Below are positions 1 through 64,000 of a stretch of DNA of 64,000 bases, in pieces; position 1 is the stretch's first letter; the number at the start of each line of letters is the position of its first letter. Source of the DNA: an uncultured virus (IMG/VR IMGVR_UViG_3300034520_000374) (lineage: Duplodnaviria; Heunggongvirae; Uroviricota; Caudoviricetes); the IMG/VR virus record IMGVR_UViG_3300034520_000374. One strand, 5' to 3'. A program made the position numbers and the translations under genes. Below the pieces are notes generated by a model. It ran no database searches. It was not told the DNA's origin and worked only from the letters and a program-made list of their open reading frames with translations.

Positions 1-729
1 AAGAACTTTGATGCAGGAATCCCGCGAGAATGGATGGTCAGGTTTACTTGCAGGGCTCTTAACGTCCAGCCAGCAGATGGTTCCGAAATCATCTTCGAGG
101 ACACCAGGAACATTAGTCCAGAAATTAGGGCTTACATCAACGCCGCTTATAACGAATACTTGACCGAAGGGGTAGGTCGGGACGATAGCGGTAAGCTCCA
201 GTTCGGTTACGGTCAGACAGTCACAAGAGCTCAGCTTGCTACAATGGCATTAAGGATTAAAGCCTATAAAGAGGACAAAGAAACATATAAGCAGTCCCGT
301 GCAATAGCTCGAAATGCGGCGGAGTTTGAGTGGAAGAAACAGCATAATAATAGCGGTAGCAGCAGTAGTAGTGGGAGCAGTGGAAGCGGTCAGCAACAGC
401 AGTGCGTTTACTGGAACGGGTATAAGTTCCCAGTTGGGTCGGTGTTTTACAATATGAACGCGAAGGAGCACCCTGAGGGTGTTGATTTCTTTGTGATGAT
501 ACAGTTTATAACTAGACCGCAAGAATTTGATGAGGTATACAATATCATGGCCAGCAAACTCGACCCAGCAACAGTTAAAAAGGCTATAGACTACGCTAGG
601 ACGAAGACCGATGAAAATAAGGAGCTACCAGACAAAATATTTAAGACACCAGACGGTTACGAGATATGGGTGTGGAGCGAAGCTTTTGAAAATGTAACAT
701 CAATTACTGTATATAAACCTGGAAAATAA
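1..729 (+). CDS. S-layer homology (SLH) domain surface protein, 5'-truncated by the window
   Basis: Frame is open from base 1 (KNFDAGIPREWM). Contains SLH-like FEDT...YINAAY...G...FGYGQTVTRAQLATM, then a Ser/Gly linker and a C-terminal domain. Confidence 0.75.
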   Translation, partial: KNFDAGIPREWMVRFTCRALNVQPADGSEIIFEDTRNISPEIRAYINAAYNEYLTEGVGRDDSGKLQFGYGQTVTRAQLATMALRIKAYKEDKETYKQSRAIARNAAEFEWKKQHNNSGSSSSSGSSGSGQQQQCVYWNGYKFPVGSVFYNMNAKEHPEGVDFFVMIQFITRPQEFDEVYNIMASKLDPATVKKAIDYARTKTDENKELPDKIFKTPDGYEIWVWSEAFENVTSITVYKPGK

Positions 730-745
730 GGACGGTGGTACTTAA

Positions 746-3700
746 ATGAAAGGGTTTAAGTTCAAGAAAGTTCTGAGCATGATAATAACAATAAGTTTAC
801 TTGTAGGGTTATTCCCAGCTAGTTCTCTAGCCTCTGGAATAAGTGGCGGAGATGTTATTAAAGGCACTAACGTTAGAATTGACCCCGATACAACTGTAAA
901 CGTAACAGAGTTTCTGAAGAAGATGAACAATGAGTTGGTAGAGATATACGGTATAGACTCTAAAGACCTAAAATTTCCTGAAGCAATAGCAGATGGAAAA
1001 TATAAAGCACGTATTTACAAAGTAAGAGGTTTATCGGAAGGCAAATGGACAGATTATGGTTACATCTTTGCATATGGTGCACCCTATGGAGACACTGCGA
1101 AGATTAATTACGACGGGGAGTTAGTAATCGTAAGTCGGTATATAGGTAGAGCGGGATATACACCCGATGACCCTGGTTCTGAATTTACAAACATAGCATT
1201 TCCTTATGACACAAAAGTTACTTGGACATTCCCAGACCTGCTTGAAGATGGAAAGGCTAAATCACCAATGATACCATGGCCTTGGGAAAATCGTAAGGCT
1301 CAGCAAGAAATTTATAGTCAGTTAGGTCAAAAAATAAATAAGAAAGCCGATAACATATTCTACAGGCAGGGCTCCGAAGCTCAGAAGAAAATCATCGACC
1401 AAATCAAACTCGGCATCCAACTCGTCCATCCAGAGCTTGTAGGCGACCCAGCGAAATTCAATCAAATCCCTTGGGAAAAATACGTTCACATCTATCAACC
1501 TCCAACCTACACCGCCTGGGGAATGGGTTGCATTTGGCATAAGGACAATAGTGATGGGCAGATATGGTATAAAACCATACCAATTGCACCTTACCAGTTG
1601 GTTGAGTCCAAATACGGTATAATTACCCTAGGTTTCCTTGATGATGGCAAGGTAGGTACTATAGATATACTTGAGTCGGTAGATAGCAAGAACCAGGAAA
1701 GGCTGTTAAAAACAATCAGTGAGGATGTAGTAGTACAGTTGTCGAGTTTCTGGGAGCAATTTTACAGGTACATGGTCTCCAATTATGGTAAGGACCCATA
1801 CAATGCAAGCGACGAGGAATTTGACAATGCATTCGATGAGTTCTACGATTCATACTCCGAAAAGGACGCATTAACTACAGCATATGACCTATTCAATCAG
1901 ATATTTGGCGGAACTATAGTGGACGACCTCGTGTTCAAGTATGGCATTATTTTGGGTGTGCTAAAGGCTATAAGCCCAAATGGGCAACTCAGCGAGGACG
2001 CGCTGTACTTGGCGAAAATTTACGAGAGGGACATATTTATATCTACGGCACAGTTATTGAGCTCAATGTCGGAAGACGAGCTGCGCAACGTGCTAAATTT
2101 ACTTGGGCCAAACTTAAATATACTTTATAAAGACCCAGATGTGCTGTATAAGGGAACAAAGGCAAGGATAAAGGACGTATACTATTCATTGTCCATTGAC
2201 CGTGTGGACAGGGATACCAACTTAAGTGAGGCACTCAAGTCACAGGTAGGTATAGCTAATGAGATAGCTGACAGGATGCTTGGAGCTGACGACTTAGGGC
2301 TTGTATTTTATTCGACTGCCGATTTGGGAATTGAGAAAGGCAGCAAGATTCCTAAGTCATACTTTAGGAACTTGGCTAACCTTTATGTTAAAGACGTCAT
2401 AGGTGAGATGTCTAATGCGGACGTAGGGCTTGACTCCGGTAAAAAGGAACTGACCATAGGAAGTGCACGCAGGGTAGCGGAGAAGTGGGCAGACAGCAAT
2501 TGGAGTCCTAAGGCACTAGAAGATTTGAATAACTTGCAGCTATACAGCATAGCATACAATACAGGGTTAACGTACGGCTTTTACGACAAGAACAAAGGTG
2601 CCTTTAAGACAATTGTAGCTAACGAAAGTGCAATAAGCGAAACATTTGCCAAGTTAGCAGGAATGGTAGCAAGCTTTGGTACGTCCGTAAGGACTTATAA
2701 GGTACAAAAAGAAGACGGTAGTTACGATACACTTAAATTTATACCTTTGAAAAATAAAGTTGGCTCGATAAGATGGTATAATGATGACTTACTTTACGGG
2801 TACAACATCAATAGGGATTTGTTAGCGAACTTCGGATTTGATGGGTTCTTAGATGCTCCTTATATAGATACATCCAATTCGGATATATTAACAAGCATGG
2901 CGCTCGCTGAGACAGCTTCCAGAACAAGAGTGAACATTAATGAGGATTACAATAGTGGCACAATGGATATAAGCGGTACAATTGCCATAACAATGGTTGG
3001 ATTGCATAAGGCGGTCCCTGTTGACTTCTATGTAGTGAGTAAAGACAGTAGTGGTAAGGCATTTATACTTTCTAAAGCTGAGAAGTACACCTATGCAGTA
3101 CCGCAGTTTATCAAGGGTGTAACTCTATTACCTGAGGTCAGCATCACGAATCCGTTAACCAAACTTCCGATGTCTGTAAAGATAACCGGAGCAACAATTA
3201 AACCTGCAAGCATAGATATAAAGACTTTCTTAAGCAAGCTGGACAGTGCTGAGGCTGCCGGTACTGACTTCATAGACGTTGGAAACAACAGGACATACAT
3301 TAAGAAGGCTCCATTCAGTGGCAAGGCTCAGCTTACAGATGTTATGACTGGGGTAGCCATTGAGCAAGACGTTAAAGATAAGCTGCTGTTCTCATTGACA
3401 AACGATGATGCTGCCGCTTACAAGCAGAACGAGCAGAACAGACCAGCCATAGTAGTATATGTTGAACCGGGAGAAGCTAAAGGAGTAGTCGAGGTAGACG
3501 TTTTCGAGGATGCTAACGGGAATACAGTGTCAGTGAACTTTAAGAATCCTGTTGTGAATGACGGTAAAGTCGTATTAAGCCAGGTAAAAGACGCAAGCCT
3601 GCTTGAGTGGAGGCTTTCTAATGAAGCAGTAGAACCTTTCGATGAGACAATCACATGGGATAAAGTCAAGAGCGTAAGGGCTATATCTTCAGGCGGACCT

Positions 3701-5680
3701 AACGATACACCTGTTATAAAAGATATGAATGGCGTGTACATTATATATGTAAGGTACAAGTACAATTTGAAGGACGTCAATATAACCGGAGATTTAGTGC
3801 TGTCACAAAAGAGGATAACAAAGGTATTTAATCTGTCACAACTTGGTCCTTTGCCGAATTTGACATTCACTTATCCTACTGCTGAACGGCATAGGCTTGA
3901 AGATGTGGATAGGAGCAGGACCGTAGACAGTAGTTACAAATACGTTATAGGCTACAGCAATAACCTAAACGGGTTGGCAGTGGCACTAAAAGGAGATAAG
4001 TTTACGCCAAGGTTTAACGGTACAAATATTAAGGTAGGCACAGCTAAATGGAACGGTGGCGCAAGTAGCATAACACCTAATCTGTATTTCATGGTATGGC
4101 GCGGAAAGGACATGCCTACATTAGCTTCCTATAAAGAACCTGCTAATCATCCATTATTGGCCTTGGGATTGAAGCGCGGGCACGTGCCTCAGAATGACAG
4201 GAACTCAGCAGGAGGGTATCAGGACAGCCTAACATCAGACTCCAATCCTTTGGTGCTGGATAAGTCAGGCAGTGGAGATTACAGCACAACATTCGCTTGT
4301 TTGAAGTGCGGGGACAGCAGGACGCAGACACACCAGCTAATAAATAAAGCAGATTATAAAGTAACAGTAGGCATACAATCATTTATAGGAAGCCCGAATA
4401 CAGGTAACGCTGTACCTGAAGACAGCACAGGTGGATTTACCGCATGTGGTGTAACCTTCAACAAGGCAGCCGGGTTCGCGATACCTCATAGCACAATGAT
4501 TAAATTCTATCCGTATGTACAGATGGGATATGACGTATTCAATGAGTCTGGAGATAATGCAGGTTATACTACAATGGGTGTAGACGTGCTAGCCCAGCAC
4601 GTATCAGCCATAAAAGTCAACGATTACGTTGAGGTAGGCTGGTACAACCCGAATCCGTCAATGAGCTTAACCATTAATTCAAATCAGTGGTCAACTTATG
4701 TGAGAGCTGTGCAGGCATTCGGCAAGAACAGTGTTTTACCAGGAGGAGCCTTATACAGTTTGACTACAAGCAATAGCCCAACCAAGGTAGGCGTAAGGAC
4801 GTGGCAGGTATACGTGCCCGATGGACTGAGGGTGTATCTAGTAGAAGGACAGGAGTTTAGTTATGACAGAGCGTCAAAGGCAGACAATGACTTTGCGGCT
4901 CAAGTGAAGAACACGTTAGATACATTGGACGTGGTTCAATACGTAAGTAACAATCCAAAAGCCGATAACGCCTTTGGTGGAGTAGAGTTACTTGCCAAAG
5001 GTGGACAAAACGTTTACGGGAACATCACATCAAGCTACGATAAGTACTGGCTGCGTAGGGGCACAAATCAGAACAGCACCTATGCTAACGAGGCTGACCT
5101 AGATATACTTGACGAAGACAAGTCGGTAATATTCTACAGGGTAAGGTCGGATACGAACGGTAACGTTTACGTGGAAAAGAGCACTGACTGGGGCAATAGC
5201 TGGGCTACTTTGGATACGCTTAGTAAGACAGAGGGAATTGGGTCATTAACCAGTGCAGAAGCCAAAGGCGTAGACGCTAGGACGAAGCTCATTACAAACT
5301 TTGTAGCAGCACTCGATAGGAATAAAGGTAACGACCCATCAGTTTCCAATGGGCCTGGCTGGTACAATGAGGCATGGGATGGAATCTACATCATGAGAGT
5401 GGACCGGGTATTCACAATAGGTTTCGGGTCACCGAAAGTGAGAAGTGTTGCACTTGACCCGAAATTAACACCACCTTCGGCAGGTATAGGAGATATCTTT
5501 ACAAGATACTATCTGAGCCAATTCAAGGTTAACGAGAAGTCCTACATTAGGGCAGATAAACCTAACGGATACCTTGGTTCATTCGGAGGAAGAAATGTTA
5601 TACTGCCTGGCATGGATATGATGTTCATGAGCAGGAAGTTCTTGATACCTAACGCTACCGTAATGGACCTTAAGTATTAA
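746..5680 (+). CDS. 1644-aa exported surface protein with an N-terminal Athe_2463-like domain
   Basis: Signal peptide MKGFKFKKVLSMIITISLLVGLFPASSLA. Motifs YGAPYG..RYIG..FTNIAFPYD and WEKYVHIYQPPTYTAWGMG resemble that family (from recall). Confidence 0.6.
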   Translation: MKGFKFKKVLSMIITISLLVGLFPASSLASGISGGDVIKGTNVRIDPDTTVNVTEFLKKMNNELVEIYGIDSKDLKFPEAIADGKYKARIYKVRGLSEGKWTDYGYIFAYGAPYGDTAKINYDGELVIVSRYIGRAGYTPDDPGSEFTNIAFPYDTKVTWTFPDLLEDGKAKSPMIPWPWENRKAQQEIYSQLGQKINKKADNIFYRQGSEAQKKIIDQIKLGIQLVHPELVGDPAKFNQIPWEKYVHIYQPPTYTAWGMGCIWHKDNSDGQIWYKTIPIAPYQLVESKYGIITLGFLDDGKVGTIDILESVDSKNQERLLKTISEDVVVQLSSFWEQFYRYMVSNYGKDPYNASDEEFDNAFDEFYDSYSEKDALTTAYDLFNQIFGGTIVDDLVFKYGIILGVLKAISPNGQLSEDALYLAKIYERDIFISTAQLLSSMSEDELRNVLNLLGPNLNILYKDPDVLYKGTKARIKDVYYSLSIDRVDRDTNLSEALKSQVGIANEIADRMLGADDLGLVFYSTADLGIEKGSKIPKSYFRNLANLYVKDVIGEMSNADVGLDSGKKELTIGSARRVAEKWADSNWSPKALEDLNNLQLYSIAYNTGLTYGFYDKNKGAFKTIVANESAISETFAKLAGMVASFGTSVRTYKVQKEDGSYDTLKFIPLKNKVGSIRWYNDDLLYGYNINRDLLANFGFDGFLDAPYIDTSNSDILTSMALAETASRTRVNINEDYNSGTMDISGTIAITMVGLHKAVPVDFYVVSKDSSGKAFILSKAEKYTYAVPQFIKGVTLLPEVSITNPLTKLPMSVKITGATIKPASIDIKTFLSKLDSAEAAGTDFIDVGNNRTYIKKAPFSGKAQLTDVMTGVAIEQDVKDKLLFSLTNDDAAAYKQNEQNRPAIVVYVEPGEAKGVVEVDVFEDANGNTVSVNFKNPVVNDGKVVLSQVKDASLLEWRLSNEAVEPFDETITWDKVKSVRAISSGGPNDTPVIKDMNGVYIIYVRYKYNLKDVNITGDLVLSQKRITKVFNLSQLGPLPNLTFTYPTAERHRLEDVDRSRTVDSSYKYVIGYSNNLNGLAVALKGDKFTPRFNGTNIKVGTAKWNGGASSITPNLYFMVWRGKDMPTLASYKEPANHPLLALGLKRGHVPQNDRNSAGGYQDSLTSDSNPLVLDKSGSGDYSTTFACLKCGDSRTQTHQLINKADYKVTVGIQSFIGSPNTGNAVPEDSTGGFTACGVTFNKAAGFAIPHSTMIKFYPYVQMGYDVFNESGDNAGYTTMGVDVLAQHVSAIKVNDYVEVGWYNPNPSMSLTINSNQWSTYVRAVQAFGKNSVLPGGALYSLTTSNSPTKVGVRTWQVYVPDGLRVYLVEGQEFSYDRASKADNDFAAQVKNTLDTLDVVQYVSNNPKADNAFGGVELLAKGGQNVYGNITSSYDKYWLRRGTNQNSTYANEADLDILDEDKSVIFYRVRSDTNGNVYVEKSTDWGNSWATLDTLSKTEGIGSLTSAEAKGVDARTKLITNFVAALDRNKGNDPSVSNGPGWYNEAWDGIYIMRVDRVFTIGFGSPKVRSVALDPKLTPPSAGIGDIFTRYYLSQFKVNEKSYIRADKPNGYLGSFGGRNVILPGMDMMFMSRKFLIPNATVMDLKY

Positions 5681-5694
5681 GCAAGACATAGCAC

Positions 5695-5728
5695 AAAAAT
5701 AAAGCGGGCGTAAGCCCGCTTTATTTTT
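5695..5728 (+). terminator. Intrinsic terminator (bidirectional-type)
   Basis: AAAAATAAAGCGGGC-GTAA-GCCCGCTTTATTTTT, a perfect stem just after the stop codon. Confidence 0.9.
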
Positions 5729-5750
5729 ATAAGGGGGTTGTAAAGTGTCC

Positions 5751-6224
5751 ATGAAGTTCAATTTGAGGACACATTATCTGATACTTGAACATCTGGCAAA
5801 AAATACATGGGTTTCCGTATGTGTGCTGCGAGGCTACAATGACGGTTGGCGGATGGCTTAAAAATACACGGAAGTAAAGGCTGTGAATGGCGTATACAAC
5901 ATGGACAACCTTCAAAATATAAATGATTATCTAACGATACCAGAGCATTGGTAGCTGGAGTTACCTGACGGAACTATAGTCGACTACACTTACCCGCGGT
6001 TTCACTGGGATTATAGCTTCATAAACAACACAACGAGTGTTGATTTCATATATTACGTGATGTCTAGCAGCAATAGAATTACACCTATCGTTAAAAAGGG
6101 AGCATACATTTACGAAAAGTTCATTCCACTTTCTTATAATGATGCGTTGGATGAATATGTGGAAAGCAAGCAGGAGCAAAAATTTGAGGACTTATCTAAA
6201 AAGAGTAGTACGAGAGATATATAA
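5751..6224 (+). pseudogene. Decayed papain/transglutaminase-like gene
   Basis: GFPYVCCE lies in one frame, followed by a frameshift in the A-run at about 5860. The next frame reads EHW*LELPDGTIVDYT with in-frame TAG at 5952-5954 and stays open to TAA 6222-6224. Confidence 0.55.
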
Positions 6225-6369
6225 TGTGAACACATAGTGAATACACTTAGGATTATTCTTACTGCATTCCGCATCGGCGTTGATGTATGAAGTGGTGAAA
6301 TAAAATAATCGGGAAGTATAAGCTATATGGTAATACGACAGGTGCATGCAGTGGGGCTTTATATCAACT

Positions 6370-6379
6370 ATATAGTGTA
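6370..6379 (+). promoter_or_regulatory. ATATAGTGTA upstream motif, copy 1
   Basis: The same 10-mer occurs at 11913 and 39417. All three copies are intergenic and upstream of genes. Confidence 0.45.
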
Positions 6380-6397
6380 AGGAAAGGAGATGTCAGT

Positions 6398-6760
6398 ATG
6401 CAACAGTATTTGACTTTTATCACTAAGCATAAGCCTACGAACGGTCAGGTTGCAACAGCAAGGCAAATGGGGTTTGCAGGTATCAACGTAAAGACAATTG
6501 AGTTTGGGGGTAACCCTGTGGAGCAGCTGGTAGCAGTCGGAATTTATCCAGGCAGCACGATAGCTGTTGTGGCTCCGCTGTTTGTGTCATTAATGCTACT
6601 GAGGGCCGGGTACACTATAGTTGATTTCGTAAATGAGCCATCGGCAAGACAGCGGGGGGTGTTCGTATGCAGAGGGGCTTGGGTGCACACGCTTCAAGAA
6701 TCCGCATTCGTGCCTTGTCCTATTCCTCTTGAGGCACAAGAAGAAAGTGCTCTTGCATAG
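6398..6760 (+). CDS. Small alpha/beta protein, possibly Csx15/Csx20-like (CARF-related)
   Basis: AAGGAGA RBS and N-terminal FITKHKPTNGQV..AR.MG pattern. The family call is tentative. Confidence 0.5.
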   Translation: MQQYLTFITKHKPTNGQVATARQMGFAGINVKTIEFGGNPVEQLVAVGIYPGSTIAVVAPLFVSLMLLRAGYTIVDFVNEPSARQRGVFVCRGAWVHTLQESAFVPCPIPLEAQEESALA

Positions 6761-6838
6761 GTTGGTGATTGGCTTGCAGTTAAGCATAAAGGCCGAGACA
6801 AAGACAATATGCATCGCACCGGAAAGGAGGGAGGTGTC

Positions 6839-8182
6839 GTGCAGGGGAAAGATGAAAAGGAGCTAAGAAGATTGAAGTTCTACAAGGATTTAATTAGGCA
6901 CAAGCTGGAGGCCATAAAGGACATTATAGGTGATTTGAAATACCGAGTATATCTAGGGGTAGTCGAGGAATGTAACGATTACAATGAGTTACGCGAGATG
7001 GCCGAACTAGATATGCATATAGAATTTGTCGAGTATGTTAAAAAGCATATACTTGATAAATTAAACGAAGACGAAGTAAGTATAGATGACCTACGCGAGT
7101 ATTACTATGGAGAGCCTGTGGAGAGCAGTGAGGCCGAGGTGGTCTTCAGCAACATTGCTGAGGCTGACGATAGCTTTATAGCATTAATGGCTATGGCATT
7201 AAATAATAGGTTAATACATGATGAAGAAATAGATGAACCTGAAGAAATCGAGCTTGACGATAGTGAGTCGGATGATGAGTCTGAGTTTGACCTATTCGAT
7301 GGCTCAGAAGAACAGGAGCAGGACGAGCAAGACTCAGAATTTGACGATGAAAGCCTCTACGGGGAAGAGGAAGAGCTTGAGGAAGATAGCGACGTCGAGC
7401 TAGACGAGGAAAGTTTATATGGAGACGAAATAGAAGAACCTGAAGAAGCCGACGAGGAACTCGAAGAAGCCTTAGAAGAACCCGACGAAGCCTTAGAGGA
7501 GCCTGAAGAAGCATTAGAGGAGACCGAAGAAGCCTTAGAGGAGCCTGAAGAAGCCGAGTTCGAGCTTGAGGAAGCAGATGATGAACCTGAGATAAATGAG
7601 GACGACTTCTTCGTAGATAGCGACGAACTTGAAGAAGATGAAGTGGACAATACAGATGTGGAAATAGACGAGAGCGATTTCTTTGTTGACGGTGATGAGG
7701 AAGATGACGACACAGAGGATACTTCAGATGAGCCTGAAATAGACGTGGATGAGGACGAGTTCTTCGTTGACGGCGATGATGAAGTTGACGACTCTGAGGA
7801 AGAAGATGAGGGCATTAGTGAAGAGGATTTCTTTGTAGATGGAGATGACAACATAGAGGAAGATGTAGAAGAACCTGTGGATGATGAGATAGACGAGAAC
7901 GATTTCTTTGTGGACTCTGATGAGGAAGAAGATGACGAAGGAATAGATGTAGACACACTATTTGGAGATGAGGGTAGTAGTGGAGGATTATTTGTACCTC
8001 CAGTAGCTAAAAAGCCTCAATCTCAGCAAGGCGGAAGTACACGGCCTAAAACTGAGGCTAAGTCTGCTAATACCGTCTTCAAAGACCCAAGAGCGCAATC
8101 TGTGCTTGACTTTATGCACAGAGGATTAAGCGGAGTAATAGGTCCAAAGAAGCGAAATCCGAATAAAGGTAAAACACGGTGA
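6839..8182 (+). CDS. Extremely acidic low-complexity protein
   Basis: GGAGG RBS before GTG 6839. D/E-rich central region with repeats and a basic C-terminal tail. Confidence 0.8.
   Translation: MQGKDEKELRRLKFYKDLIRHKLEAIKDIIGDLKYRVYLGVVEECNDYNELREMAELDMHIEFVEYVKKHILDKLNEDEVSIDDLREYYYGEPVESSEAEVVFSNIAEADDSFIALMAMALNNRLIHDEEIDEPEEIELDDSESDDESEFDLFDGSEEQEQDEQDSEFDDESLYGEEEELEEDSDVELDEESLYGDEIEEPEEADEELEEALEEPDEALEEPEEALEETEEALEEPEEAEFELEEADDEPEINEDDFFVDSDELEEDEVDNTDVEIDESDFFVDGDEEDDDTEDTSDEPEIDVDEDEFFVDGDDEVDDSEEEDEGISEEDFFVDGDDNIEEDVEEPVDDEIDENDFFVDSDEEEDDEGIDVDTLFGDEGSSGGLFVPPVAKKPQSQQGGSTRPKTEAKSANTVFKDPRAQSVLDFMHRGLSGVIGPKKRNPNKGKTR
7463..7555 (+). repeat. 21-bp coding tandem repeat (EEALEEP), about 4.4 copies
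   Basis: GAAGAAGCCTTAGA(A/G)GA(A/G)CC(C/T)-like units at 7463, 7484, 7505 and 7526. Confidence 0.85.
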
Positions 8183-8188
8183 TAATAT

Positions 8189-8713
8189 ATGGGGGCATTA
8201 TCGGTAAAGCTAGAGATACTTAAGAATGTACCTTTGAACTGTGGCGAGGTAACTATACGTAAGTTCAAGCTCAAAGACATTATAGGCTACTATAACCTCG
8301 TCTCGGACGAAAGGGTTTACAAGTTTCTCAGGAGTAGAAATCTCAGGAGTTACCCGGCAGTGGAGACTTTTTTATTGAGCATAATAAACGATTACAGTTT
8401 AGCTGCAGAGACCAGATTCGCGGTAGTCCTGAACAGTACAGATGAAATAGTTGGGGCAATATCAATGTATATAGACAAGAGGGATAGGGGAGTAGAACTA
8501 GGGTATTGGATTGGATATCCTTACTGGAATAGGGGTTACATGACGAGCGTAATAAACGCGTCAGTTAGCATGCTTGAGAAAATAAATGATGTTGACTTTG
8601 TGTATGCGAAAATACACAAGGAAAATAAAAGCTCGTTGAGGGTTGTTGAAAAGGCAGGTTTTAAGCTAGAAAAACTTGAAGGAGATATAATGACCTTTAG
8701 GAAAGAATTGTAG
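8189..8713 (+). CDS. GNAT N-acetyltransferase, RimJ/RimL family
   Basis: VELGYWIGYPYWNRGYMT and N.SSLRVVEKAGF motifs. Confidence 0.9.
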   Translation: MGALSVKLEILKNVPLNCGEVTIRKFKLKDIIGYYNLVSDERVYKFLRSRNLRSYPAVETFLLSIINDYSLAAETRFAVVLNSTDEIVGAISMYIDKRDRGVELGYWIGYPYWNRGYMTSVINASVSMLEKINDVDFVYAKIHKENKSSLRVVEKAGFKLEKLEGDIMTFRKEL

Positions 8714-8782
8714 GCAGACGATTTAAGCTCAAGAGTATATCAGGTAGATAATGTATAATTGATGAACAAAGGAGGGGTCAAA

Positions 8783-9055
8783 ATGCCGTTTGACTATTTG
8801 GATGTACCCCAGCAGGTGGTTAAGGCTATCAAGGAAGAAGCCAGGAAGGTAGGCAACGGTTACAAGGTTATACTCATATCGAGATACAGTGCTCATCCTG
8901 GAGACAGTCATTTGTACATGGTGTTGGCTTTTGGGGGCCCTACACAATCTTATGTAACATGGCTGTATAATGCTAGCATAGGCGGTCTTGGGTATGGGCA
9001 TTACGATATGGACTTCAAGACAGCCTTGTTCGATTTTGTGAACAGGTTAGGATAG
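8783..9055 (+). CDS. Hypothetical mobile-element protein
   Basis: GGAGG RBS and YVTWLYN...GYGHY motif. Confidence 0.7.
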   Translation: MPFDYLDVPQQVVKAIKEEARKVGNGYKVILISRYSAHPGDSHLYMVLAFGGPTQSYVTWLYNASIGGLGYGHYDMDFKTALFDFVNRLG

Positions 9056-9069
9056 CGGGAGGTACTTAT

Positions 9070-9573
9070 ATGGTGGTTGTTCTCATATCTGGATATGCAA
9101 CAAGTGGTAAAGATACTTTTTCAGACTTTGTTATAAAGCATTTACCGTGCGCCAAGAAGTTCCCTTTCGCCTATGAGCTAAAGGAGATAGCATCTAAATA
9201 CTTTGGATGGGACGGTAATAAGGACGAGAAAGGGCGTAATTTATTAATAGGAATAGGCAGTGTGGGTAGGGCTTACAATCCATACATCTGGGTGGACAAG
9301 ACAATAAAAAGAATAAAATCCGAAAGCCCAGCAGTAGCCATAGTCAGCGACTGGAGGTTCAAGAACGAGTTTATCAGGATGACAGAGGTCTTCGGGAGGG
9401 GTAGTGTAATAACAGTCAGAATAAAAAGGAACGTTGGAAGAATATTAGACGATATATCAGAACATGACCTAGACGACTTCACGGATTACGACTACATAGT
9501 AGATAATAACGGCACACTTGAGGGTTTAGAAGGAGCAGCAAGGGATTTTATAGGTAGGCTGCTGTTGGTGTAG
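9070..9573 (+). CDS. Phage-type deoxynucleoside monophosphate kinase
   Basis: P-loop SGYATSGKDT, FAYELK, SDWRFKNE, SEHDLD and IVDNNGT motifs. Confidence 0.8.
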   Translation: MVVVLISGYATSGKDTFSDFVIKHLPCAKKFPFAYELKEIASKYFGWDGNKDEKGRNLLIGIGSVGRAYNPYIWVDKTIKRIKSESPAVAIVSDWRFKNEFIRMTEVFGRGSVITVRIKRNVGRILDDISEHDLDDFTDYDYIVDNNGTLEGLEGAARDFIGRLLLV

Positions 9574-9601
9574 CAAGCAGCATGATACGGGAGTGGGGCG
9601 A

Positions 9602-10744: not shown

Positions 10745-10758
10745 AGGAGGTGGCAATT

Positions 10759-11922: not shown

Positions 11923-11945
11923 GATAAAAGGGGTTGAAAGTCGCT

Positions 11946-12569: not shown

Positions 12570-12605
12570 GGGCGAAAAAAATTTGAGTTTTTACTGTGAA
12601 GGGTA

Positions 12606-51434: not shown

Positions 51435-51467
51435 AAATTACTGGGCTGTATAAGCCCAGTAATTTTT
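51433..51467 (+). terminator. Intrinsic terminator
   Basis: AAAAATTACTGGGCT-GTATA-AGCCCAGTAATTTTT. Confidence 0.85.
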
Positions 51468-51488
51468 AACGAATTGAGGGGTGTTTAC

Positions 51489-52379: not shown

Positions 52380-52380
52380 T

Positions 52381-53283: not shown

Positions 53284-53346
53284 TTTATGAGCCGATGTTT
53301 TCAGCTTTTGAGTAATTATTGTAAAGAAAATAAAGGGGAGAGGTTC

Positions 53347-55473: not shown

Positions 55474-56994
55474 GTGTATATAGACATTGGGATGGAGGAA
55501 ACGCTGAAGAAGATATTTGGGGCGGTAATTGCTGGTGGTATCAGGCGTGATAATCCATATCTAGAACAGAAACAAGAGGTTTTCAGGGCGTGTGTTCCTA
55601 AGTTCTTAGCCACTTTCCCAAGCAATATATTTCTAAACGAGTACGCTTTCTTCTATGAGGTGTTAACAACTCTAAAAGTAAAGGTATTCAGCGAGCAGCA
55701 ATTACGCATACTGATTGAGCAGAACTCTGATTTAATTCTAACTAGCCCATATATTGACCTTAGTCAATGGGCATCAACTGTGGACGGCAGGCAAGCTACA
55801 CCAGACGAGAAAGTTGAAGCATTTGCGAATAGCCTGCTGGAGACTTACAAAGAGCTTTCAAATATGTATGTTACGGTCGAGGAATTTGAGTCGGCTTGTA
55901 ACATATACATTAATTACTTTATCGAAAAGACCATGTTTGAGACCGTTCAGAACATGGCATTAATACTCGGCGACACTGGGTACATGGAGAGGAAGCCACA
56001 CGGCAAGACGGCAATATACAAAGGTTTAGATGATGCACAACGATATTATAACGAGAAAATGAAGCTCATCAGGGAGCTTTCAGAAACTGAAAAGATACAA
56101 GCAAGAGTTATCGACCATGCGTGGTTAGAGGACGAGCTACAAAAGGAAGACATAGGTGATACCGAAGGAATTCTTGACTTTGGCATTGAAGAAATTGACA
56201 AAGTCATGGGCAAGCTCAGAAGGTCGTATATGCTTGGAATACTTGGACCGCCAAAAGGCGGTAAGACCAGGATGACTAACTATATAGTTTGTAGGGCTCT
56301 CGAAAGAGGATTAAATGTGGCGGTATGGCCTCTGGAAGGTACTGTAGAAGAATGGGTAGCCATGCAGATAGCGGCTATGATACGTATGACATCAGGTCAA
56401 TCACTTGACGATAAGCAGATAATCGAAAGGAGATACGATAACGACGATATAAAACAGCTGGTTCTGTCAGCAAAAACAAAGTTGGCAACAGATTATAATA
56501 GGGGCAAACTATCGTTCATAACCGGAACAGCGTATGTAGAGGACTTCATAGACGTTTTACAAGCTCATTACGATAATGAAAATGCTTTTGATGTTATTGT
56601 AATTGACAGCTTGGTGAACATACTGTCAAAGACTAAAAAGACCAAGGTAGAGCGCATAAGTGAAGCATACATGTTGCTAAAGGACTTCATAGCAAATAAA
56701 TTACCACGCAAGGCGATAGCTATAGTACCTGCTCAACTAAAGCAGGACGTCATAGATTATTTGCGGAAGAATCCTGGAGAGACTATTGATGTAACATCTG
56801 GTGGCGAATCTGCTGAAACGGTAAGGTCACCTGATGAAGTAATAGGGCTGTTCTCGACAAAAGAGGAGAGGAATACAGGAAAAATGAGGATTTATAGCGT
56901 AGCTTCAAGACATAGCGCCAACTTTGATGACTTTTATGTAAGGTGCGAGCTTGGGTGTTGTTTCTTCTACAGTGACCCGAGCCTTAATGAGTAG
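55474..56994 (+). CDS. DnaB-like (SF4) replicative helicase
   Basis: GIEEIDKVMG.L, GPPKGGKT, PLEG, VIVIDS, PAQL and D.VIGL motifs. Confidence 0.8.
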   Translation: MYIDIGMEETLKKIFGAVIAGGIRRDNPYLEQKQEVFRACVPKFLATFPSNIFLNEYAFFYEVLTTLKVKVFSEQQLRILIEQNSDLILTSPYIDLSQWASTVDGRQATPDEKVEAFANSLLETYKELSNMYVTVEEFESACNIYINYFIEKTMFETVQNMALILGDTGYMERKPHGKTAIYKGLDDAQRYYNEKMKLIRELSETEKIQARVIDHAWLEDELQKEDIGDTEGILDFGIEEIDKVMGKLRRSYMLGILGPPKGGKTRMTNYIVCRALERGLNVAVWPLEGTVEEWVAMQIAAMIRMTSGQSLDDKQIIERRYDNDDIKQLVLSAKTKLATDYNRGKLSFITGTAYVEDFIDVLQAHYDNENAFDVIVIDSLVNILSKTKKTKVERISEAYMLLKDFIANKLPRKAIAIVPAQLKQDVIDYLRKNPGETIDVTSGGESAETVRSPDEVIGLFSTKEERNTGKMRIYSVASRHSANFDDFYVRCELGCCFFYSDPSLNE

Positions 56995-57198: not shown

Positions 57199-57858
57199 AT
57201 GAGCGGGGCTAAAGTTTCTAAGAAGCTTATTGACATGTTGAGTGAGTTTTTGGTAACCGAAATTCAGGGGAAGGCACTTGGCGGAATTACTTACACACTA
57301 TTATTCAAAGACGGTAAGGACAAGGAGATGTGTGCCAAATACTTTAAGATTAGGGAAGAGGCTACAAATTGTGGTTTCGGACCGAACGAAGTATTTAGGG
57401 TTTACGAGGTAACCAACGGTTACATTTTCGACATGGATTTAAGCGTTGCTAAATACATTACTGTGGAGCTTTCCAAGGCTGTAGCCAAGATGAACGGTGG
57501 CAAGACTCCTGTTGGTGACCTTATCGGCGAGGCTCCTGAGAAAAGGCGCAGGGAAGATATGACGTTACTTGCAAAATATTTGCAGGGACAGTTCAAGGAA
57601 GGTAAGAAAGATGTGGAGGTAGCCTTATTTAGCCGCAACAGCGTTCCAAGGATTGTGATTAATGCTGTGGATAAAGCCGGGAATCCAGTACTTTTGAAGT
57701 ATAATGCTTATGCAATTAGGCACTGGGACATTGAGGATGTTAACACAGCTCTGTTACTACCTGTAGGCATCAGGATTGCGAGTATTGAGCCTTGTGAGAT
57801 TTTACCTTCGAAAACAGGAGTGCGGTTTATAATTCGTTTAGCTTCTGTTGGAAAATAA
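57199..57858 (+). CDS. Hypothetical protein
   Basis: AAGGAGG RBS. Confidence 0.8.
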   Translation: MSGAKVSKKLIDMLSEFLVTEIQGKALGGITYTLLFKDGKDKEMCAKYFKIREEATNCGFGPNEVFRVYEVTNGYIFDMDLSVAKYITVELSKAVAKMNGGKTPVGDLIGEAPEKRRREDMTLLAKYLQGQFKEGKKDVEVALFSRNSVPRIVINAVDKAGNPVLLKYNAYAIRHWDIEDVNTALLLPVGIRIASIEPCEILPSKTGVRFIIRLASVGK

Positions 57859-57913: not shown

Positions 57914-58861
57914 ATGTATATGTTGATTAAAGGAAAATTAATTGTTAGCGATAATAATGGAAATTACAGGCTTGGGAATATTGATGGCGAGTCCTTGAGA
58001 AACGTCAATGTGCATGAGAGAAGTATAATGTCAATTGACGGTAGCACTTCACGGACAGGCATAAGCGTATTAAATTACGAAGGTAAGCCAAAAGTAGTTT
58101 TTGCAGTCATAAGGGGTAATGACGAGAGTCATGTGGAGTATAAGGTAAACCTTAAGAGAGTTATCGGTGCAGTACTGTTGGGGAACAAGAGCATTGACAC
58201 AGTGGTGTATGAGGAGCCTTTCATTGAGTACTCAAGTGCTGCCAAACATTTGCTCATGCTTAGAACATTCGTAGAGGAGCTTATAATTGAGTGCAGGCCA
58301 GAACTAAATCACATCAGGTTTATTGAGATTAACAATAAGAAGTGGAAGCGCATATTTTTGCGTCCGGATAAGTGCCCTAGTAGCTCGCAGCTTGAAAAGA
58401 AGGCAGTCAAAGATAAGTTGATGAGCACATTCCCATATTTAGCTGGCATTTCGCAGGACGAGATAGACTCAGTAGCTATGGGTCTGGCTGTGTTAAGCGA
58501 GATAAGAGCTGGAAATATAGGCAAGTTAGCTTCGCGTAAACCAGGACGCAAGTTTGCATATAACATAGAGTTTATTGGTGCAGACAATGACGATGAGGCT
58601 TTTGCCGAAATTGGAGACAACTTGAGTGATATGGGAATACCAATGCGTGTGGCTGAGGAAGGAATCAGTTTCGTTGAGCTAAACGGGAGAGAAGATTTTG
58701 ATGACGTAATATTTAACAACCTGGCGTATGAGGATAAATTACTTATACTTAAGTTTAGGTCAAAGCATTTTGGAAACATAGTTCTTAAGCATAGAATTGG
58801 CGAATTGGCGGCAACGAATAATTGGATTTACGCTTTCGTGTGGAGAAAACATAGAAAGTGA
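57914..58861 (+). CDS. RuvC-like Holliday junction resolvase with C-terminal extension
   Basis: MSIDGSTSRTG, VYEEP, WKR, K..VK and DEIDSVAMG motifs. Confidence 0.75.
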   Translation: MYMLIKGKLIVSDNNGNYRLGNIDGESLRNVNVHERSIMSIDGSTSRTGISVLNYEGKPKVVFAVIRGNDESHVEYKVNLKRVIGAVLLGNKSIDTVVYEEPFIEYSSAAKHLLMLRTFVEELIIECRPELNHIRFIEINNKKWKRIFLRPDKCPSSSQLEKKAVKDKLMSTFPYLAGISQDEIDSVAMGLAVLSEIRAGNIGKLASRKPGRKFAYNIEFIGADNDDEAFAEIGDNLSDMGIPMRVAEEGISFVELNGREDFDDVIFNNLAYEDKLLILKFRSKHFGNIVLKHRIGELAATNNWIYAFVWRKHRK

Positions 58862-59665: not shown

Positions 59666-59905
59666 ATGGAATGTTACTATTATAATAGGTTTAACGGTCC
59701 TGTTGTAAAAGAACTCTCGTCAAAAGATATTGAACAGCAGGATGCAGTAGACAATGCAATATATAAGTTGCTATGTGAACTCACTGGTAAGGAGCTTCTA
59801 TGGGACATATCCGTCATACACGAAATATTTGATGTAATACGTGAAAAGGTGTATAAAAGATACGGTATAGTTATACCATATGCGGAGGTTGGGGAGGAGT
59901 CGTAA
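59666..59905 (+). CDS. Small hypothetical protein
   Basis: AGGAGG RBS and QDAVDNAIY motif. Confidence 0.7.
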   Translation: MECYYYNRFNGPVVKELSSKDIEQQDAVDNAIYKLLCELTGKELLWDISVIHEIFDVIREKVYKRYGIVIPYAEVGEES

Positions 59906-59906
59906 G

Positions 59907-61103
59907 ATGATTAATAAGAATCTTTTAGATGAGCTGAACAGACTGGGATTTGGTGCCGATGTAGACGCATTGGAGAGTTATGTAGCTTCATTGCAGGATG
60001 CAGCAGGTATGGGCGAGCCCAAAGTCACAGACGTGATGTACGACTATTATGTTCGTTTACTCAGGCAGTTAAAACCAGACAGCTATGTATTAAAACGTAA
60101 CTGGGAAGTGGACGACTACGAATTAGACGAAAACGACATTCTTCTTACCAAATACGGAATGAAGTCAATCACAACAATACAAAACATGGCGGACCTTTAT
60201 AAATTTAAGGAAGCTCTCGGGGACAGAACTGTTAACATGTTAGCATCTATAAAACTCAACGGTCACGCCATAAGGGCCGTTTACAGGAACGGCAAGCTAG
60301 TTAGTGGCTCTACAAGAGGCAGGCGCAAGAAGGGTCGGGACATTACACGTCATCTTAAAGCAGTATTACCAAATGAAGTTGAAGCATGGCATGATATAAA
60401 TATCGTAGAAGTGAGAGGTGAAATGCTGGTTCCGCTAGCCAAGTTCGAATATCTAAGGGACTACCTGAAAACACCCTTATCAGCTGTAACTTCTCTACTT
60501 CGAGATAGCGTAACGGACGCAGAATTGAAATATCTTGACTGTGTATGCTACAAGGCGCTCACTGAAAATAATGAGTTAGGACTAAATAAGTTATCCGAGG
60601 AAATGGACCATCTTGACAAGTGCGGGTTCAAGACACCACGCAGAATACTTGTCGAGAACGTTGACATTTATAACCTAAACGTTGTAGTGGAAGAAGTGCT
60701 TAATCACTTTGAAAGAATCTACGATGAATTAGAATACGCTACAGACGGTGTTGTAATGGCGATAGATGACAATGAGACATTCTACAGCTTGGGCATGGAC
60801 GGCAACGCATATTTAGGCAACTTTGCATTAAAAATGGGCAAGTACTGGGAAAGCAACATTTACAAATCAATCATTAAGGAAATTAAGTGGATACCTGGAA
60901 AGACTTATATAACACCAAAGGCAATTATAGAGCCCGTAATAACAGTTACCGGTGCAACTGTAGAGAATGTTCCTTTATACAATGTAGGGGTTATTGAGCG
61001 TCTGAAATTAATTCCGGGTAACGAGATATACTTCAAGTTTGGTGGTGAAACTGGAGTAACACTTGTGGCACCAGATGGCACACCAATAAGCATGCTTGAG
61101 TAG
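59907..61103 (+). CDS. NAD-dependent DNA ligase-like protein (adenylation and OB domains only)
   Basis: P.VTD.MYD, KLNG, STRG..GRDIT, EVRGE, TDGVV, FALK and ITPKA..EPV...G motifs. No Zn finger, HhH or BRCT domain. Confidence 0.85.
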   Translation: MINKNLLDELNRLGFGADVDALESYVASLQDAAGMGEPKVTDVMYDYYVRLLRQLKPDSYVLKRNWEVDDYELDENDILLTKYGMKSITTIQNMADLYKFKEALGDRTVNMLASIKLNGHAIRAVYRNGKLVSGSTRGRRKKGRDITRHLKAVLPNEVEAWHDINIVEVRGEMLVPLAKFEYLRDYLKTPLSAVTSLLRDSVTDAELKYLDCVCYKALTENNELGLNKLSEEMDHLDKCGFKTPRRILVENVDIYNLNVVVEEVLNHFERIYDELEYATDGVVMAIDDNETFYSLGMDGNAYLGNFALKMGKYWESNIYKSIIKEIKWIPGKTYITPKAIIEPVITVTGATVENVPLYNVGVIERLKLIPGNEIYFKFGGETGVTLVAPDGTPISMLE

Positions 61104-61263: not shown

Positions 61264-62697
61264 TTGGAACCTCGTAAACAAAAAGTTGACATCGAGTTTG
61301 ATGACATGGAATTCGATGTTGATGACATGTATGGTGATGATGACGGTGAGGATGAGGTAGTCAATATTGAGGATGATGATAACAGTGAGGGATATGCAGA
61401 CAATTACGGAACTCAGGTGGACGCAAGCGAGATTCAGGGAGACAATATCGACGAGTACGAGATAGCTGGCAGTAATGGGCATGATTTAATAAGTAGTACT
61501 GGTGACATAGTTGTAATGGACCCAAGCTTTGATAGGGAATACTTTAAGTTTGCCTATGTCGACATTGAGAACATAGCTGTAGTCAAGCGTATACGCAAGA
61601 CAAAAAATGTTGAGGACTTAGTGAAGTCTATCAAGAGCACCGGATTATTGATGCCTATAGTTGTTGCACCAACTGTTACGGAAGGCATATATGTGCTTTT
61701 GAGCGGGTTCAGAAGGCTTTTAGCCTGTGCTCGTGTCGGAATGAAGAAGGTTCCATGCATTATAAATACTATGGTTAATACTCCAGAAATACCAATTATA
61801 GAGGCTATGTACAACCATGTAAAGCCTTATACTATGCAGGAGATTATTGACTACATTGATTATCTGGAGAAAGAGAAGGGTATAATGTCGGCATCAATGA
61901 TTGAATATTTACTACAGATGGAAAGTGGTGATTACACCAAGCTTAAAGATATATTAACTGACAATGACCCTGACATTGTTTCCAAGCTACTTAATAACGA
62001 AATGACTATAAGCCAAGCATTCAAAAAGCTTGAGCAACGGAGAAAGAAGGAGAGCAAGGAAGAAAAGGAACTCAAGAAGGCAAACAAGGTATATGTTGAG
62101 GATAAGGAGAGCGCGGAGAAGCTTGAAGGAGCAGGCGAGACAGCTGTTGATGGCCAGGGTCTCAGCGATGAAGAAATAGCTTCTTTAGCATTTATGGCAA
62201 ACAACATAGATGAAGATGAAAGAAGCCTTGAGCAAATGATTGAGGATGGCGAGAAAATGCCTGGGTTCGAACCGAAGGTTCAGAAGGTAGGGGAACGTGA
62301 GATTGTAGACCCTGCTCTTCGTAAGGCGGTCATGGAAAGAGACCATAACACATGTAGGTGCTGTGAAGAAGGCGGTCCAGAATACGTTGACGTTAATGAT
62401 TTCCATCATGTCGTGCCTGTGTTCCTTGGAGGCCCGGACACAGTGGATAATGCGATATGTGTATGTGTGAAGTGTCATAAATTAATACATCTATATGCAC
62501 GCGGGCAACTACATCTAGTCAATATTGATAAAATGAGTGAGCAGGAGAAAAAGAAGTTTAAGCGTATTATAAAATATGGCGAGATTATTCGTGAGGGGAT
62601 AGCCCGTAAGGGCATGAAGCTGGAGGAATACAGGAAGAAGGATAATATACGTGTTATAGGGCGTCAGATGCCCGGGCATAAAAACACTGTAACATAA
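61264..62697 (+). CDS. ParB/Srx-domain protein fused to a C-terminal HNH endonuclease
   Basis: L..SIK..GLLMPIVV..LLSGFRRL.A motif, then V.ERD...CRCC..HHVVP...GG.D..DN...C..CH. Confidence 0.88.
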   Translation: MEPRKQKVDIEFDDMEFDVDDMYGDDDGEDEVVNIEDDDNSEGYADNYGTQVDASEIQGDNIDEYEIAGSNGHDLISSTGDIVVMDPSFDREYFKFAYVDIENIAVVKRIRKTKNVEDLVKSIKSTGLLMPIVVAPTVTEGIYVLLSGFRRLLACARVGMKKVPCIINTMVNTPEIPIIEAMYNHVKPYTMQEIIDYIDYLEKEKGIMSASMIEYLLQMESGDYTKLKDILTDNDPDIVSKLLNNEMTISQAFKKLEQRRKKESKEEKELKKANKVYVEDKESAEKLEGAGETAVDGQGLSDEEIASLAFMANNIDEDERSLEQMIEDGEKMPGFEPKVQKVGEREIVDPALRKAVMERDHNTCRCCEEGGPEYVDVNDFHHVVPVFLGGPDTVDNAICVCVKCHKLIHLYARGQLHLVNIDKMSEQEKKKFKRIIKYGEIIREGIARKGMKLEEYRKKDNIRVIGRQMPGHKNTVT

Positions 62698-62702: not shown

Positions 62703-62756
62703 AAAAAATAAAAAGCCTGGGGAGCTTAAATTAGTACCACAGGCTTTTTATTTTTA
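62703..62756 (+). terminator. Intrinsic terminator
   Basis: AAAAATAAAAAGCCTG...CAGGCTTTTTATTTTT. Confidence 0.85.
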
Positions 62757-62859
62757 TGTCATTGTGGGAAAGCATATATGTAATATAAATAAAGAAAAGA
62801 AGGAGAGGAGGGAACAGCTTCTCGTTCAGCTTATTATAGCTTTGCGGAGAAGCGATAGC

Positions 62860-64000
62860 ATGGCGAAAAATATCTTTAGTTTACCGGAGAATTACGAGGT
62901 TAAGGAAGTAGCAGGCTTAAGAGGATTAGTGAGGCACGGCAAGAACGGCGAGCAATGGATACTAGAGCCGGTCTATGCGGATATTCTTATAGCAAGGTGC
63001 ATGGGTAAGATAATCATAGCCTGTAGGTATCCTATGGATTATGACAGTGGGTACAGGTTGATTGACAGCAAAGGCAATACATTAATAAATATACCTATCG
63101 CAGATGTGCTTTTCGGGGATAGATTCTTATACATCAGGACTATCAGGCCTAGCTCAAAGACAATTGAATGGTGCAAGGTAAATGAGGACTTCAAGGGAGG
63201 TAAATTTCTAGGGGACTTCGAAATCCTTGGCAGAGACCCAAGGATGCCGCACCACATACAAAAAGATAGGGAAACCATAATGGTTCGTGATGCAAACGGG
63301 CTATTAAAGCGTATCTACCTCAAAACAGGGGAAATCGAAGACGAAGTGGCTTTTGCTACTGACCCGCAGCCAAAGAAGGAATACGTTGTCGAGAACTACC
63401 GCGTGGAAATCAACTCAAACACTAACAAAGTAGAAGTATACGATGCGAACGGTAGGGGTAACTCCATTATGACTTTTGGCATTGGGGAAATAGGGACTTA
63501 CAGCACAATTATAACAGAATGTCTTGGTGGAAATCTCAATATGGTTCCGAAGGCTCTTGGCGATAAGTTCCTAACAGGTGTGCTGGGCAGGTTCGAGTAT
63601 TGTGGTAACTACATCGGATTGCTTGCAGCATACCAAATAGCTAAGCGAAACAATACTAAAGATGCAAATGAGCTCGTAGATTTAATAATCAAGGAACTTG
63701 AGGCTGGCTGGGCAGACATAGGTGGAGGGTATTATATAAAAGGGTATGTGCTCAGCGGTATAGTCATAGCAATGGTTGCCTTGCCACAAGGCAAGATTAC
63801 AACAGCAGTCTACAAGATTCGTGGCGAAGATGGCATTGTGGATGTCGGCGGTGTGCAGGCAATAGTAAATGCCTATAAGAGCACTGGCGTCAAGATAGTT
63901 AGACTACTAGTTAATGAGGCAGTGGCGAATGATATGAACATTGATGAGATAAAACTTATGCCTCCATATTCTGTAGTTCAGCGTAAGTCACTTGCATCAG
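62860..64000 (+). CDS. Hypothetical protein, 3'-truncated by the window (not in the ORF track)
   Basis: ATG 62860 (MAKNIFSLPENYEVKEV...), with the frame open to the end of the window. Confidence 0.8.
   Translation, partial: MAKNIFSLPENYEVKEVAGLRGLVRHGKNGEQWILEPVYADILIARCMGKIIIACRYPMDYDSGYRLIDSKGNTLINIPIADVLFGDRFLYIRTIRPSSKTIEWCKVNEDFKGGKFLGDFEILGRDPRMPHHIQKDRETIMVRDANGLLKRIYLKTGEIEDEVAFATDPQPKKEYVVENYRVEINSNTNKVEVYDANGRGNSIMTFGIGEIGTYSTIITECLGGNLNMVPKALGDKFLTGVLGRFEYCGNYIGLLAAYQIAKRNNTKDANELVDLIIKELEAGWADIGGGYYIKGYVLSGIVIAMVALPQGKITTAVYKIRGEDGIVDVGGVQAIVNAYKSTGVKIVRLLVNEAVANDMNIDEIKLMPPYSVVQRKSLAS

Follow-up and report, generated by a model that had tools for sequence, protein, structure and literature searches.

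In the portions of the literature drawn on here (PMC9673590, PMC6199540), pXO16 of Bacillus thuringiensis is described as a 350-kb conjugative plasmid with all of its coding sequences in one orientation and with a 25-kb tip locus, encoding two ATPases and a wall hydrolase, that lies inside the replication region. Transfer is single-stranded, relaxase and oriT are given as not identified, and the plasmid can move not just its own DNA but also 'non-mobilisable' plasmids and as much as 791 kb of chromosome (PMC9673590, PMC6199540). The subject of this report is a 64,000-nucleotide stretch of DNA, hereafter the window, from an uncultured virus filed under Caudoviricetes (IMG/VR record IMGVR_UViG_3300034520_000374). 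The window is very likely the backbone for replication and transfer of a megaplasmid of the pXO16 type, at least 190 kb in size, with a host that is probably a thermophilic clostridium. The kind of element is already known via pXO16; what is new is a fixed order of 24 genes, a reading of the replisome as a family A polymerase (PolA) plus clamp, and a probable thermophile member with transfer-messenger RNA (tmRNA) and tRNAs. A full-text search, which did not extend to subscription papers and theses, returned no paper describing pXO16 relatives outside Bacillus.

The window holds 52 open reading frames (ORFs), all on the plus strand and covering 91.6 % of its length, with a GC content of about 42 % across it and a GC skew above zero in 32 of 32 bins. 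For comparison, the pXO16 sequence was NZ_CP013277.1 (pAM65-52-2-350K / pBTHD789-1, B. thuringiensis sv. israelensis). Twelve of the 52 window proteins match the first 90 kb of pXO16 at 20-37 % identity and in nearly the same order, 16 share clusters with the whole plasmid (mostly 20-37 % identity), and profiles tie several further window genes to pXO16 genes at matching positions, those of the 211- and 272-amino-acid (aa) proteins upstream of dnaX reaching their syntenic counterparts at E 2.4e-4 and 7e-5. Both elements run colinearly from dnaX through the VirB4-like and FtsK genes to gyrB, gyrA, dnaB, ruvC, ligase and ParB-HNH, and both show one-strand coding, uniform skew, a transfer locus within the replication region and no known relaxase. 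However, identity is only 20-37 %, the window protein falls on another branch of a quick VirB4 tree, pXO16 is without the tmRNA and tRNAs that the window has, the surface genes to be seen in the window are SLH-type rather than sortase-type, pXO16 has a hydrolase gene whereas the window lacks one after the 1632-aa gene, and its host is a Bacillus in place of the probable Clostridia host of the window element. The backbone genes are as follows.

11934-13514, plus strand: 211-aa membrane protein and 272-aa protein, core to the family, upstream of dnaX
14155-15555, plus strand: DnaX clamp-loader ATPase of the element's own clade (TIGR02397, 240 bits; cut-off 250)
15686-19188, plus strand: start of the transfer locus, with small membrane paralogues (15686, 17874, 18730), an HU-like gene (16865) and a YdjM-like hydrolase gene (17234)
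19230-21500, plus strand: exported protein of 756 aa whose C-terminal two-helix membrane anchor recurs in pXO16 wall-enzyme genes
21507-26405, plus strand: 1632-aa polytopic membrane protein with 6 hydrophobic segments (pXO16 orthologue, E 4e-34)
26422-31204, plus strand: 464-aa core membrane protein, ParA/MinD-like ATPase-fold protein (27841) and coiled-coil protein (29816)
31211-33286, plus strand: VirB4-like ATPase, Walker A intact (NCBIfam E 3e-16; PDB 4ag5 E 3.5e-4)
33450-35822, plus strand: FtsK/SpoIIIE ATPase with two membrane segments
35835-38910, plus strand: acidic protein of 374 aa and exported protein of 647 aa, close-clade genes with which the transfer locus ends
45213-48767, plus strand: SNF2-type helicase (core), exported 244-aa protein, 292-aa P-loop protein and zinc-finger protein
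49449-55458, plus strand: type IIA topoisomerase subunits B (49449-51434) and A (53287-55458), with two ORFs between
55474-56994, plus strand: DnaB-like replicative helicase (family scans)
57199-57858, plus strand: 219-aa core protein with two winged-helix-like domains (model pLDDT 96.8; 96 representatives)
57914-58861, plus strand: RuvC-like resolvase (PHROG E 1e-6)
59880-61103, plus strand: N-terminal half only of an NAD-dependent ligase, 407 aa, motif KLNG
61264-62697, plus strand: ParB-N domain fused to an HNH nuclease (core)

An initial annotation, made from the letters of the window, had seen in it a mixture of phage-like, chromosome-like and conjugative modules. Much of its inventory holds, since family scans find the element's own DnaX, DnaB-like protein, topoisomerase, RuvC-like protein, ParB, deoxynucleoside monophosphate (dNMP) kinase, ArdC, tmRNA and tRNAs; gyrB and gyrA are separated as it said, dnaX is without recR, and no virion, integrase or ribosomal gene occurs among the 52 proteins. 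Other items need trimming. The NAD ligase is present as an N-terminal half, the VirB4 and FtsK transfer genes are both found, the former far under its cut-off, and the supposed SLH surface proteins come down to one cut gene at 1-729, the neighbouring 1644-aa gene carrying an Athe_2463 domain instead. The supposed DnaC-like protein (47573-48451) has a Walker A motif and N-terminal cysteine pairs, and no Pfam match better than E 0.1; this 292-aa P-loop protein is a candidate helicase loader. The mixture itself and a class without precedent find no support, the backbone being colinear with that of a conjugative plasmid; a megaplasmid that replicates itself, with a near-autonomous replisome and a VirB4/FtsK transfer locus, is supported.

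The window is one of many such loci. Three circular records filed as viruses, of 158-265 kb, have direct terminal repeats, namely G007 (264.6 kb, of the window's clade), G006 (179.8 kb) and G011 (158.4 kb). Twenty-four single-copy families are common to these three and pXO16, 13 of them lying in the window, and their circular order is identical in G006, G011 and pXO16, with 23 of 24 in place in G007, where one gene is displaced. Between 97 and 99.8 % of coding DNA lies on one strand in 10 of 10 records, and the skew is positive in all 95 10-kb bins of the four circles. The 250-kb record G002 matches 36 of the 52 window proteins in order, G001 is a 26-kb piece identical to part of the window, and a protein identical to the window's VirB4-like ATPase sits on a contig of up to 191,492 bp. 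An alignment-based scan found 11 loci in viral contigs, at least 34 in metagenome contigs and 7 in genome contigs. One of these last 7 is marginal, and the other 6 are short contigs binned as Lachnospiraceae, Oscillospiraceae or Clostridia. A pattern scan of viral contigs for the DnaB-like protein proved insensitive (0 of 1 candidate confirmed, yet 5 of 5 tested records carry it). When 8000 candidates were scored in a search with the VirB4-like protein, 438 clusters reached E 1e-20 or better; among the 120 of them that were listed, identity is 59-98 % and contigs run up to 547 kb. Among 72,556 plasmid records the VirB4-like protein has 22 matches, the best ten being pXO16 copies at 32.9 %, and the DnaB-like protein has 12. 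More distant than pXO16 are 215-kb plasmids of B. velezensis / B. amyloliquefaciens (NZ_CP076292.1) and 136-156-kb Bacillus plasmids, with VirB4-like proteins at 25 %; in the 96 of 216 kb compared, the 215-kb plasmid shares a DnaX-like gene, FtsK, SNF2, DnaB, CHC2, ParB, ligase and a polymerase gene.

Some sightings are harder to place. A second GyrB in an unrelated Bacillota genome (L195, G030:C100) groups with the element clade at 48 % identity and may mark another family member, and a 63 %-identical VirB4-like protein (P0074) stands under an archaeal bin name, probably through mis-binning. One Lachnospiraceae bin, G012 (contigs C103, C142, C205, C248, C347 and C400), holds two different element-type copies each of DnaX, GyrB, the 219-aa gene and the VirB4-like gene, reflecting either two co-resident elements or mis-binning.

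A gene set with housekeeping-like members, tmRNA and tRNAs would also be expected of a chromid, of a reduced chromosome or of a chromosomally integrated island; IF3, SmpB, ClpB and a protein with an S1 domain are encoded in G002, the IMG/VR class of several relatives is 'provirus', and 6 loci sit in genome bins. The phylogenies speak otherwise. The initial annotation had called these genes divergent and proposed trees of them; in FastTree analyses the element DnaX and GyrB split with support of 100 from 15 and 17 chromosomal Bacillota copies (for DnaX, every second of 30 loci and the first 400 residues; for GyrB, both GyrB and ParE), and the trees, being midpoint-rooted, show separation rather than origin. 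Bin G012 has a chromosomal DnaX beside its two element-type copies, the 219-aa core gene occurs in 1 of 401 Bacillota genomes plus one marginal match, G002 keeps one strand and one skew sign over its whole length, and the window is without integrase and rRNA (the latter by ARAGORN and Rfam, a scan confined to the window). A chromosomal reading in any of these forms is most improbable, the least favoured of the alternatives, and the plasmid reading is retained.

Scarcely better is the case for a jumbo phage or phage-plasmid, with virion genes too divergent to detect and a membrane locus serving injection or superinfection, which we rate as very unlikely. It draws on the 11 relatives filed in a viral collection, on features familiar from phages (one-strand coding, tRNAs, tmRNA, PolA and dNMP kinase), on the lack of a family for most genes, and on a phage-like nature once suggested for pXO16, according to a review (PMC9673590, PMC6199540). 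That plasmid is nonetheless conjugative, with no plaques reported in the same sources (PMC9673590, PMC6199540). Terminase_6N is found in 0 of 5 relatives (the three circles and pXO16 among them) and in 5 of 14 controls. The check for terminase and capsid that the initial annotation had suggested turned up neither in the window nor in the scanned relatives: Pfam scans give no terminase, portal or major capsid in any of the 178 major-strand ORF pieces of G006 or the 219 of G002, nor in the pieces covered of G007 (135 of its 193 outside the window part) and G011 (59 of its 112), and PHROG scans give none in 146 pieces of G006 and 109 of G007. Where PHROG assigns 'tail', 'virion structural' or 'spanin', the region is NlpC/P60, lysozyme or coiled coil. 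The sole 'tail' label in the window, a tape measure at 29816-31204 (E 8e-5), likewise falls on a coiled coil that SMC and SbcC models match too, and none of the 52 proteins matches recR, integrase, terminase, capsid, portal or ribosomal protein models. Two core proteins, VirB4-like and DnaB-like, are unmatched among 50,697 phage records.

For replication, the complete relatives of the pXO16-type plasmid fill in what lies outside the window. The initial annotation had expected a DnaE replicase; a model search finds DnaE/PolC in 0 of 5 relatives and 10 of 14 controls, and all four circles carry instead a family A polymerase of 1132-1212 aa. The same four circles each have a CHC2 zinc-finger gene with a separate Toprim gene, SbcC/SbcD, UvrD, a RecJ-like protein, a 5'-3' exonuclease and an actin-like gene. 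A short second PolA-like gene (391-526 aa) occurs in the window's clade (G007 128371-129552, G002 241685-243253, G003 30479-32059), G007 having the full-length polymerase besides. A conserved protein of 380-427 aa is probably a divergent beta clamp. Against 18 host DnaN sequences hhalign gives it 59.6 % (E 8.9e-5, 297 columns, from the N-terminus) where 6 of 6 control sets stay under 1 %, and the pXO16 member matches the beta C-terminal Pfam model at E 0.033; in hmmsearch with host DnaN, an unrelated pXO16 protein (E 0.012) stands level with it (E 0.013). Two copies of the G006 protein are modelled as a head-to-tail homodimer, the beta-clamp arrangement, with residues ~76-128 against 276-315 (score 0.57, best control 0.00; runs agreeing on at least 95 % of contacts; pLDDT at least 87). 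Of 30 solved pairs 20 attain the mark used, as does 1 of 23 single chains; the pass may reflect likeness to solved clamps. A conserved 321-398-aa protein resembling Pol III delta (Atlas score 0.93, 176 shared features) is a lead for a delta-like subunit, and searches of PDB sequences with the alignments of both candidates gave no relevant match. On pXO16 the PolA gene lies at 117099-120497, the clamp candidate at 172590-173762 and the delta candidate at 109040-110236.

As to the initiator, Rep3_N is found in 0 of 5 relatives, 3 of 14 controls and nowhere in the window. The predicted fold of the 219-aa core protein, encoded after dnaB, offers a weak lead to an initiator candidate, its comparisons giving a best Z of 6.4, within the range of common folds (RepE 5.0, Pi 4.9), and no Foldseek match at E 0.001; its PDB sequence matches to designed PPR proteins were treated as artefacts. 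The 272-aa core protein (model pLDDT 80.7, best Z 4.4, best viral E 6e-3, blank in the Atlas) was considered as a capsid, clamp or single-stranded-DNA-binding protein, for none of which was there support, fold searches being without a match. The topoisomerase A subunit retains the catalytic RY, and a pattern search of it found no GyrA-box. NAD ligases usually have D at the position of N in KLNG; N also stands there in G006, G010 and G011, and the C-terminal ligase half is a separate conserved gene in relatives. A further core protein of 1347-1525 aa (G007 73018-77061, G006 4024-8427, pXO16 179599-183921) lies directly after sbcD and a split sbcC, shows Walker A/B-like motifs by eye without a Pfam family, and may be a third HerA/FtsK-type motor for end processing.

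The transfer locus extends from 15686 to 38910, with dnaX before it and SNF2, gyrB, gyrA and dnaB after it. By sequence it is an orthologous, colinear, tip-type two-ATPase locus, and its transfer function, and with it conjugation of the window element, is carried over from pXO16 by homology. The FtsK/SpoIIIE ATPase is likely the coupling motor, and the 1632-aa membrane protein is a candidate channel subunit. Family scans give no relaxase among the 52 window proteins; the MOB-P relaxase PF03432 is found in 0 of 5 relatives and 2 of 14 controls, other MOB families being covered through bulk Pfam scans, and Pfam/PHROG scans of G002, G006 and parts of G007 and G011 show neither relaxase nor integrase families. 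A conserved OB-HD protein of the pXO16-side clade, encoded at 131714-132661 on pXO16, was considered as a MOBH-like relaxase; it has only a generic HD match and no orthologue in the window's clade, and stays a weak lead. The same replicon family might instead carry a tip-like locus that no longer moves DNA, or that secretes proteins in the manner of type VII systems, as would fit the missing relaxase match, a locus without a wall hydrolase, weak scores of the FtsK domain with EssC/EccC models, and MOB-suite calls of non-mobilizable for 22 of 22 related plasmids. Such typing, however, also mislabels pXO16, which is highly conjugative, and both ATPases retain Walker A in a locus that is intact and ordered across the family; this alternative is very unlikely.

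Several points weigh against assigning the window to a conjugative, self-replicating plasmid of the pXO16 type. The VirB4 assignment lies far below curated cut-offs (NCBIfam E 3e-16), and family scans detect no wall hydrolase domain in the window's transfer locus, such as pXO16 needs; G006 has CHAP at the wall-hydrolase position, and close relatives have genes of NlpC/P60 or M23 type in other places. In the two nearest relatives, neither of them complete, the only PolA-like gene to be seen is one of 522-526 aa; the clamp and delta candidates are found only in the pXO16-side clade, profile searches having reached no orthologue of either in the window's own. The element's circularity, polymerase, clamp and primase are read by analogy from relatives, and unidirectional replication from skew and strand bias.

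From the gene content of the window and its complete relatives a working model can be drawn. The element would load its own DnaB helicase, a split CHC2/Toprim primase would prime, and a family A polymerase of ~1150 aa would copy, held by its own beta-type clamp and with DnaX and the delta-like subunit as loader. One-strand genes and a uniform GC skew suggest one-way replication, so a single fork would travel round the circle in the direction of transcription. Topoisomerase II, RuvC, ligase, SbcCD, RecJ, UvrD and the 5'-3' exonuclease could finish and separate the copies, which the actin-like protein would segregate. Following pXO16, surface proteins would hold donor and recipient together, tip-type membrane proteins and the VirB4-like ATPase would form the channel, and the FtsK-type ATPase would feed DNA in. 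Because no known relaxase was found, transfer might start with an enzyme that went unrecognised, or from intermediates of replication or recombination. Translation of a large gene set may have accessory support from the tmRNA and tRNAs. More tentatively, pXO16 may be the cultured member of a widespread class of capsid-less Gram-positive replicons of 150-550 kb, with about 24 genes in fixed order, a private PolA/beta-clamp/DnaX-delta replisome, a single fork, and relaxase-free transfer in which intermediates are possibly handed to the FtsK motor, the missing initiator and transfer starter being among its unassigned core genes.

With at least 438 VirB4-like clusters and a fixed 24-gene order, the family narrows the relaxase and transfer-origin candidates of pXO16 to a handful. 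If the relatives mobilise DNA as pXO16 does, genes would flow by an unseen route among Bacillota of gut, digester and subsurface, the elements being scored non-mobilizable in plasmid typing and entered as phages in virus databases. A replisome in which a family A polymerase works with a beta clamp and loader encoded on a plasmid would be unusual.

Other giant elements bear comparison. Hodors, conjugative gut megaplasmids of Bacillota, are also hundreds of kb in size, misfiled among huge phages, and equipped with VirB4, an actin-like partition gene and no readily found relaxase; they differ in Rep_3, VirD4, a MOBH-like relaxase, a sec operon and proteins over 7300 aa (PMC12934698, in part). A term search of the main text of that article shows no mention of pXO16, gyrase, tRNA or FtsK (PMC12934698). 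VirD4, MOBH-like relaxase and sec operon have no Pfam match in G002 and G006, which have no ORF over ~1930 aa, and Hodors are set apart by description. Inocles, giant oral Streptococcus elements, are likewise described as large, circular and capsid-less, with tRNAs, gyrase and surface proteins, whereas their gene direction switches at origin and terminus and they have an InoC marker (10.1101/2024.09.30.615745, in part). The pXO16-type family, with one-strand coding all round, is set apart by that description; the InoC domain PF13814 was found in 0 of 5 relatives and was positive in no control either. The Tcp system of pCW3 of Clostridium perfringens has an FtsK-like coupling protein and a recombinase-like relaxase; the latter has no counterpart among the Pfam matches here, and the likeness is by description only. 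It is to this system that a review likens pXO16 transfer (PMC9673590, PMC6199540).

Outside the backbone, the window carries surface, accessory and RNA genes.

1-729, plus strand: 3' part of an SLH surface protein gene (PF00395 in 14/14 longer homologues)
746-5680, plus strand: 1644-aa exported protein with Athe_2463 domain, kept in the close clade
6809-8182, plus strand: acidic low-complexity protein, N-terminus matching G002
8189-9573, plus strand: accessory genes for a GNAT acetyltransferase, an LPD24 protein and a dNMP kinase (9070-9573) (family scans)
9593-10744, plus strand: 383-aa protein of no known family, kept in 6/6 close-clade records
10723-11811, plus strand: ArdC-like anti-restriction protein with zincin domain (family scans)
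39012-41608, plus strand: variable island that includes two HNH-like genes; two related elements have other DNA in its place
41676-43795, plus strand: tmRNA (41676-42025) and tRNA-Met (two), -Leu, -Thr and -Trp, around a 244-aa ORF
43808-45109, plus strand: accessory NADAR-like, no-family and SLOG-family genes

The probable thermophilic clostridial host is suggested by the first of these genes, whose own SLH score is E 0.14 and whose best homologue, at 68 %, is a protein of Fervidicola ferrireducens (Thermosediminibacterales), with Tepidanaerobacteraceae and Thermoanaerobacteraceae also among the best relatives. Four subsurface runs contain the window stretch and may be its source; contigs from a hot-spring run and from a manure run resemble it at ~94-95 % over 6-10 kb, and short pieces come from another hot-spring run. 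In the hot-spring and manure relatives, other DNA stands in place of the HNH-bearing stretch before the tmRNA (38951-41676). ARAGORN and Rfam agree on the one tmRNA and five tRNAs of the window; the region 43425-43620 has by eye the look of decayed tRNA genes, and neither program calls any there.

Surface and accessory functions vary among the relatives. The 1644-aa protein is a candidate adhesin; G002 has several SLH proteins, one with a weak match to an ATLF-type metallopeptidase domain, and G006 and G011 have antigen I/II-type adhesins, together with an FHA, PP2C and Ser/Thr kinase trio partly shared with pXO16. G002 further encodes 18 tRNAs, a tmRNA with SmpB, IF3, ClpB, MetK, a ThyX-like protein and RtcB, and in it a T2SSE ATPase adjoins a ParA-like gene. 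A repeat search of the window found no CRISPR array or iterons, the only repeats being tRNA copies, terminator-like hairpins and acidic coding repeats, the last as tracts of 21-base period in three genes (6809-8182, 27841-29793 and 35835-36959).

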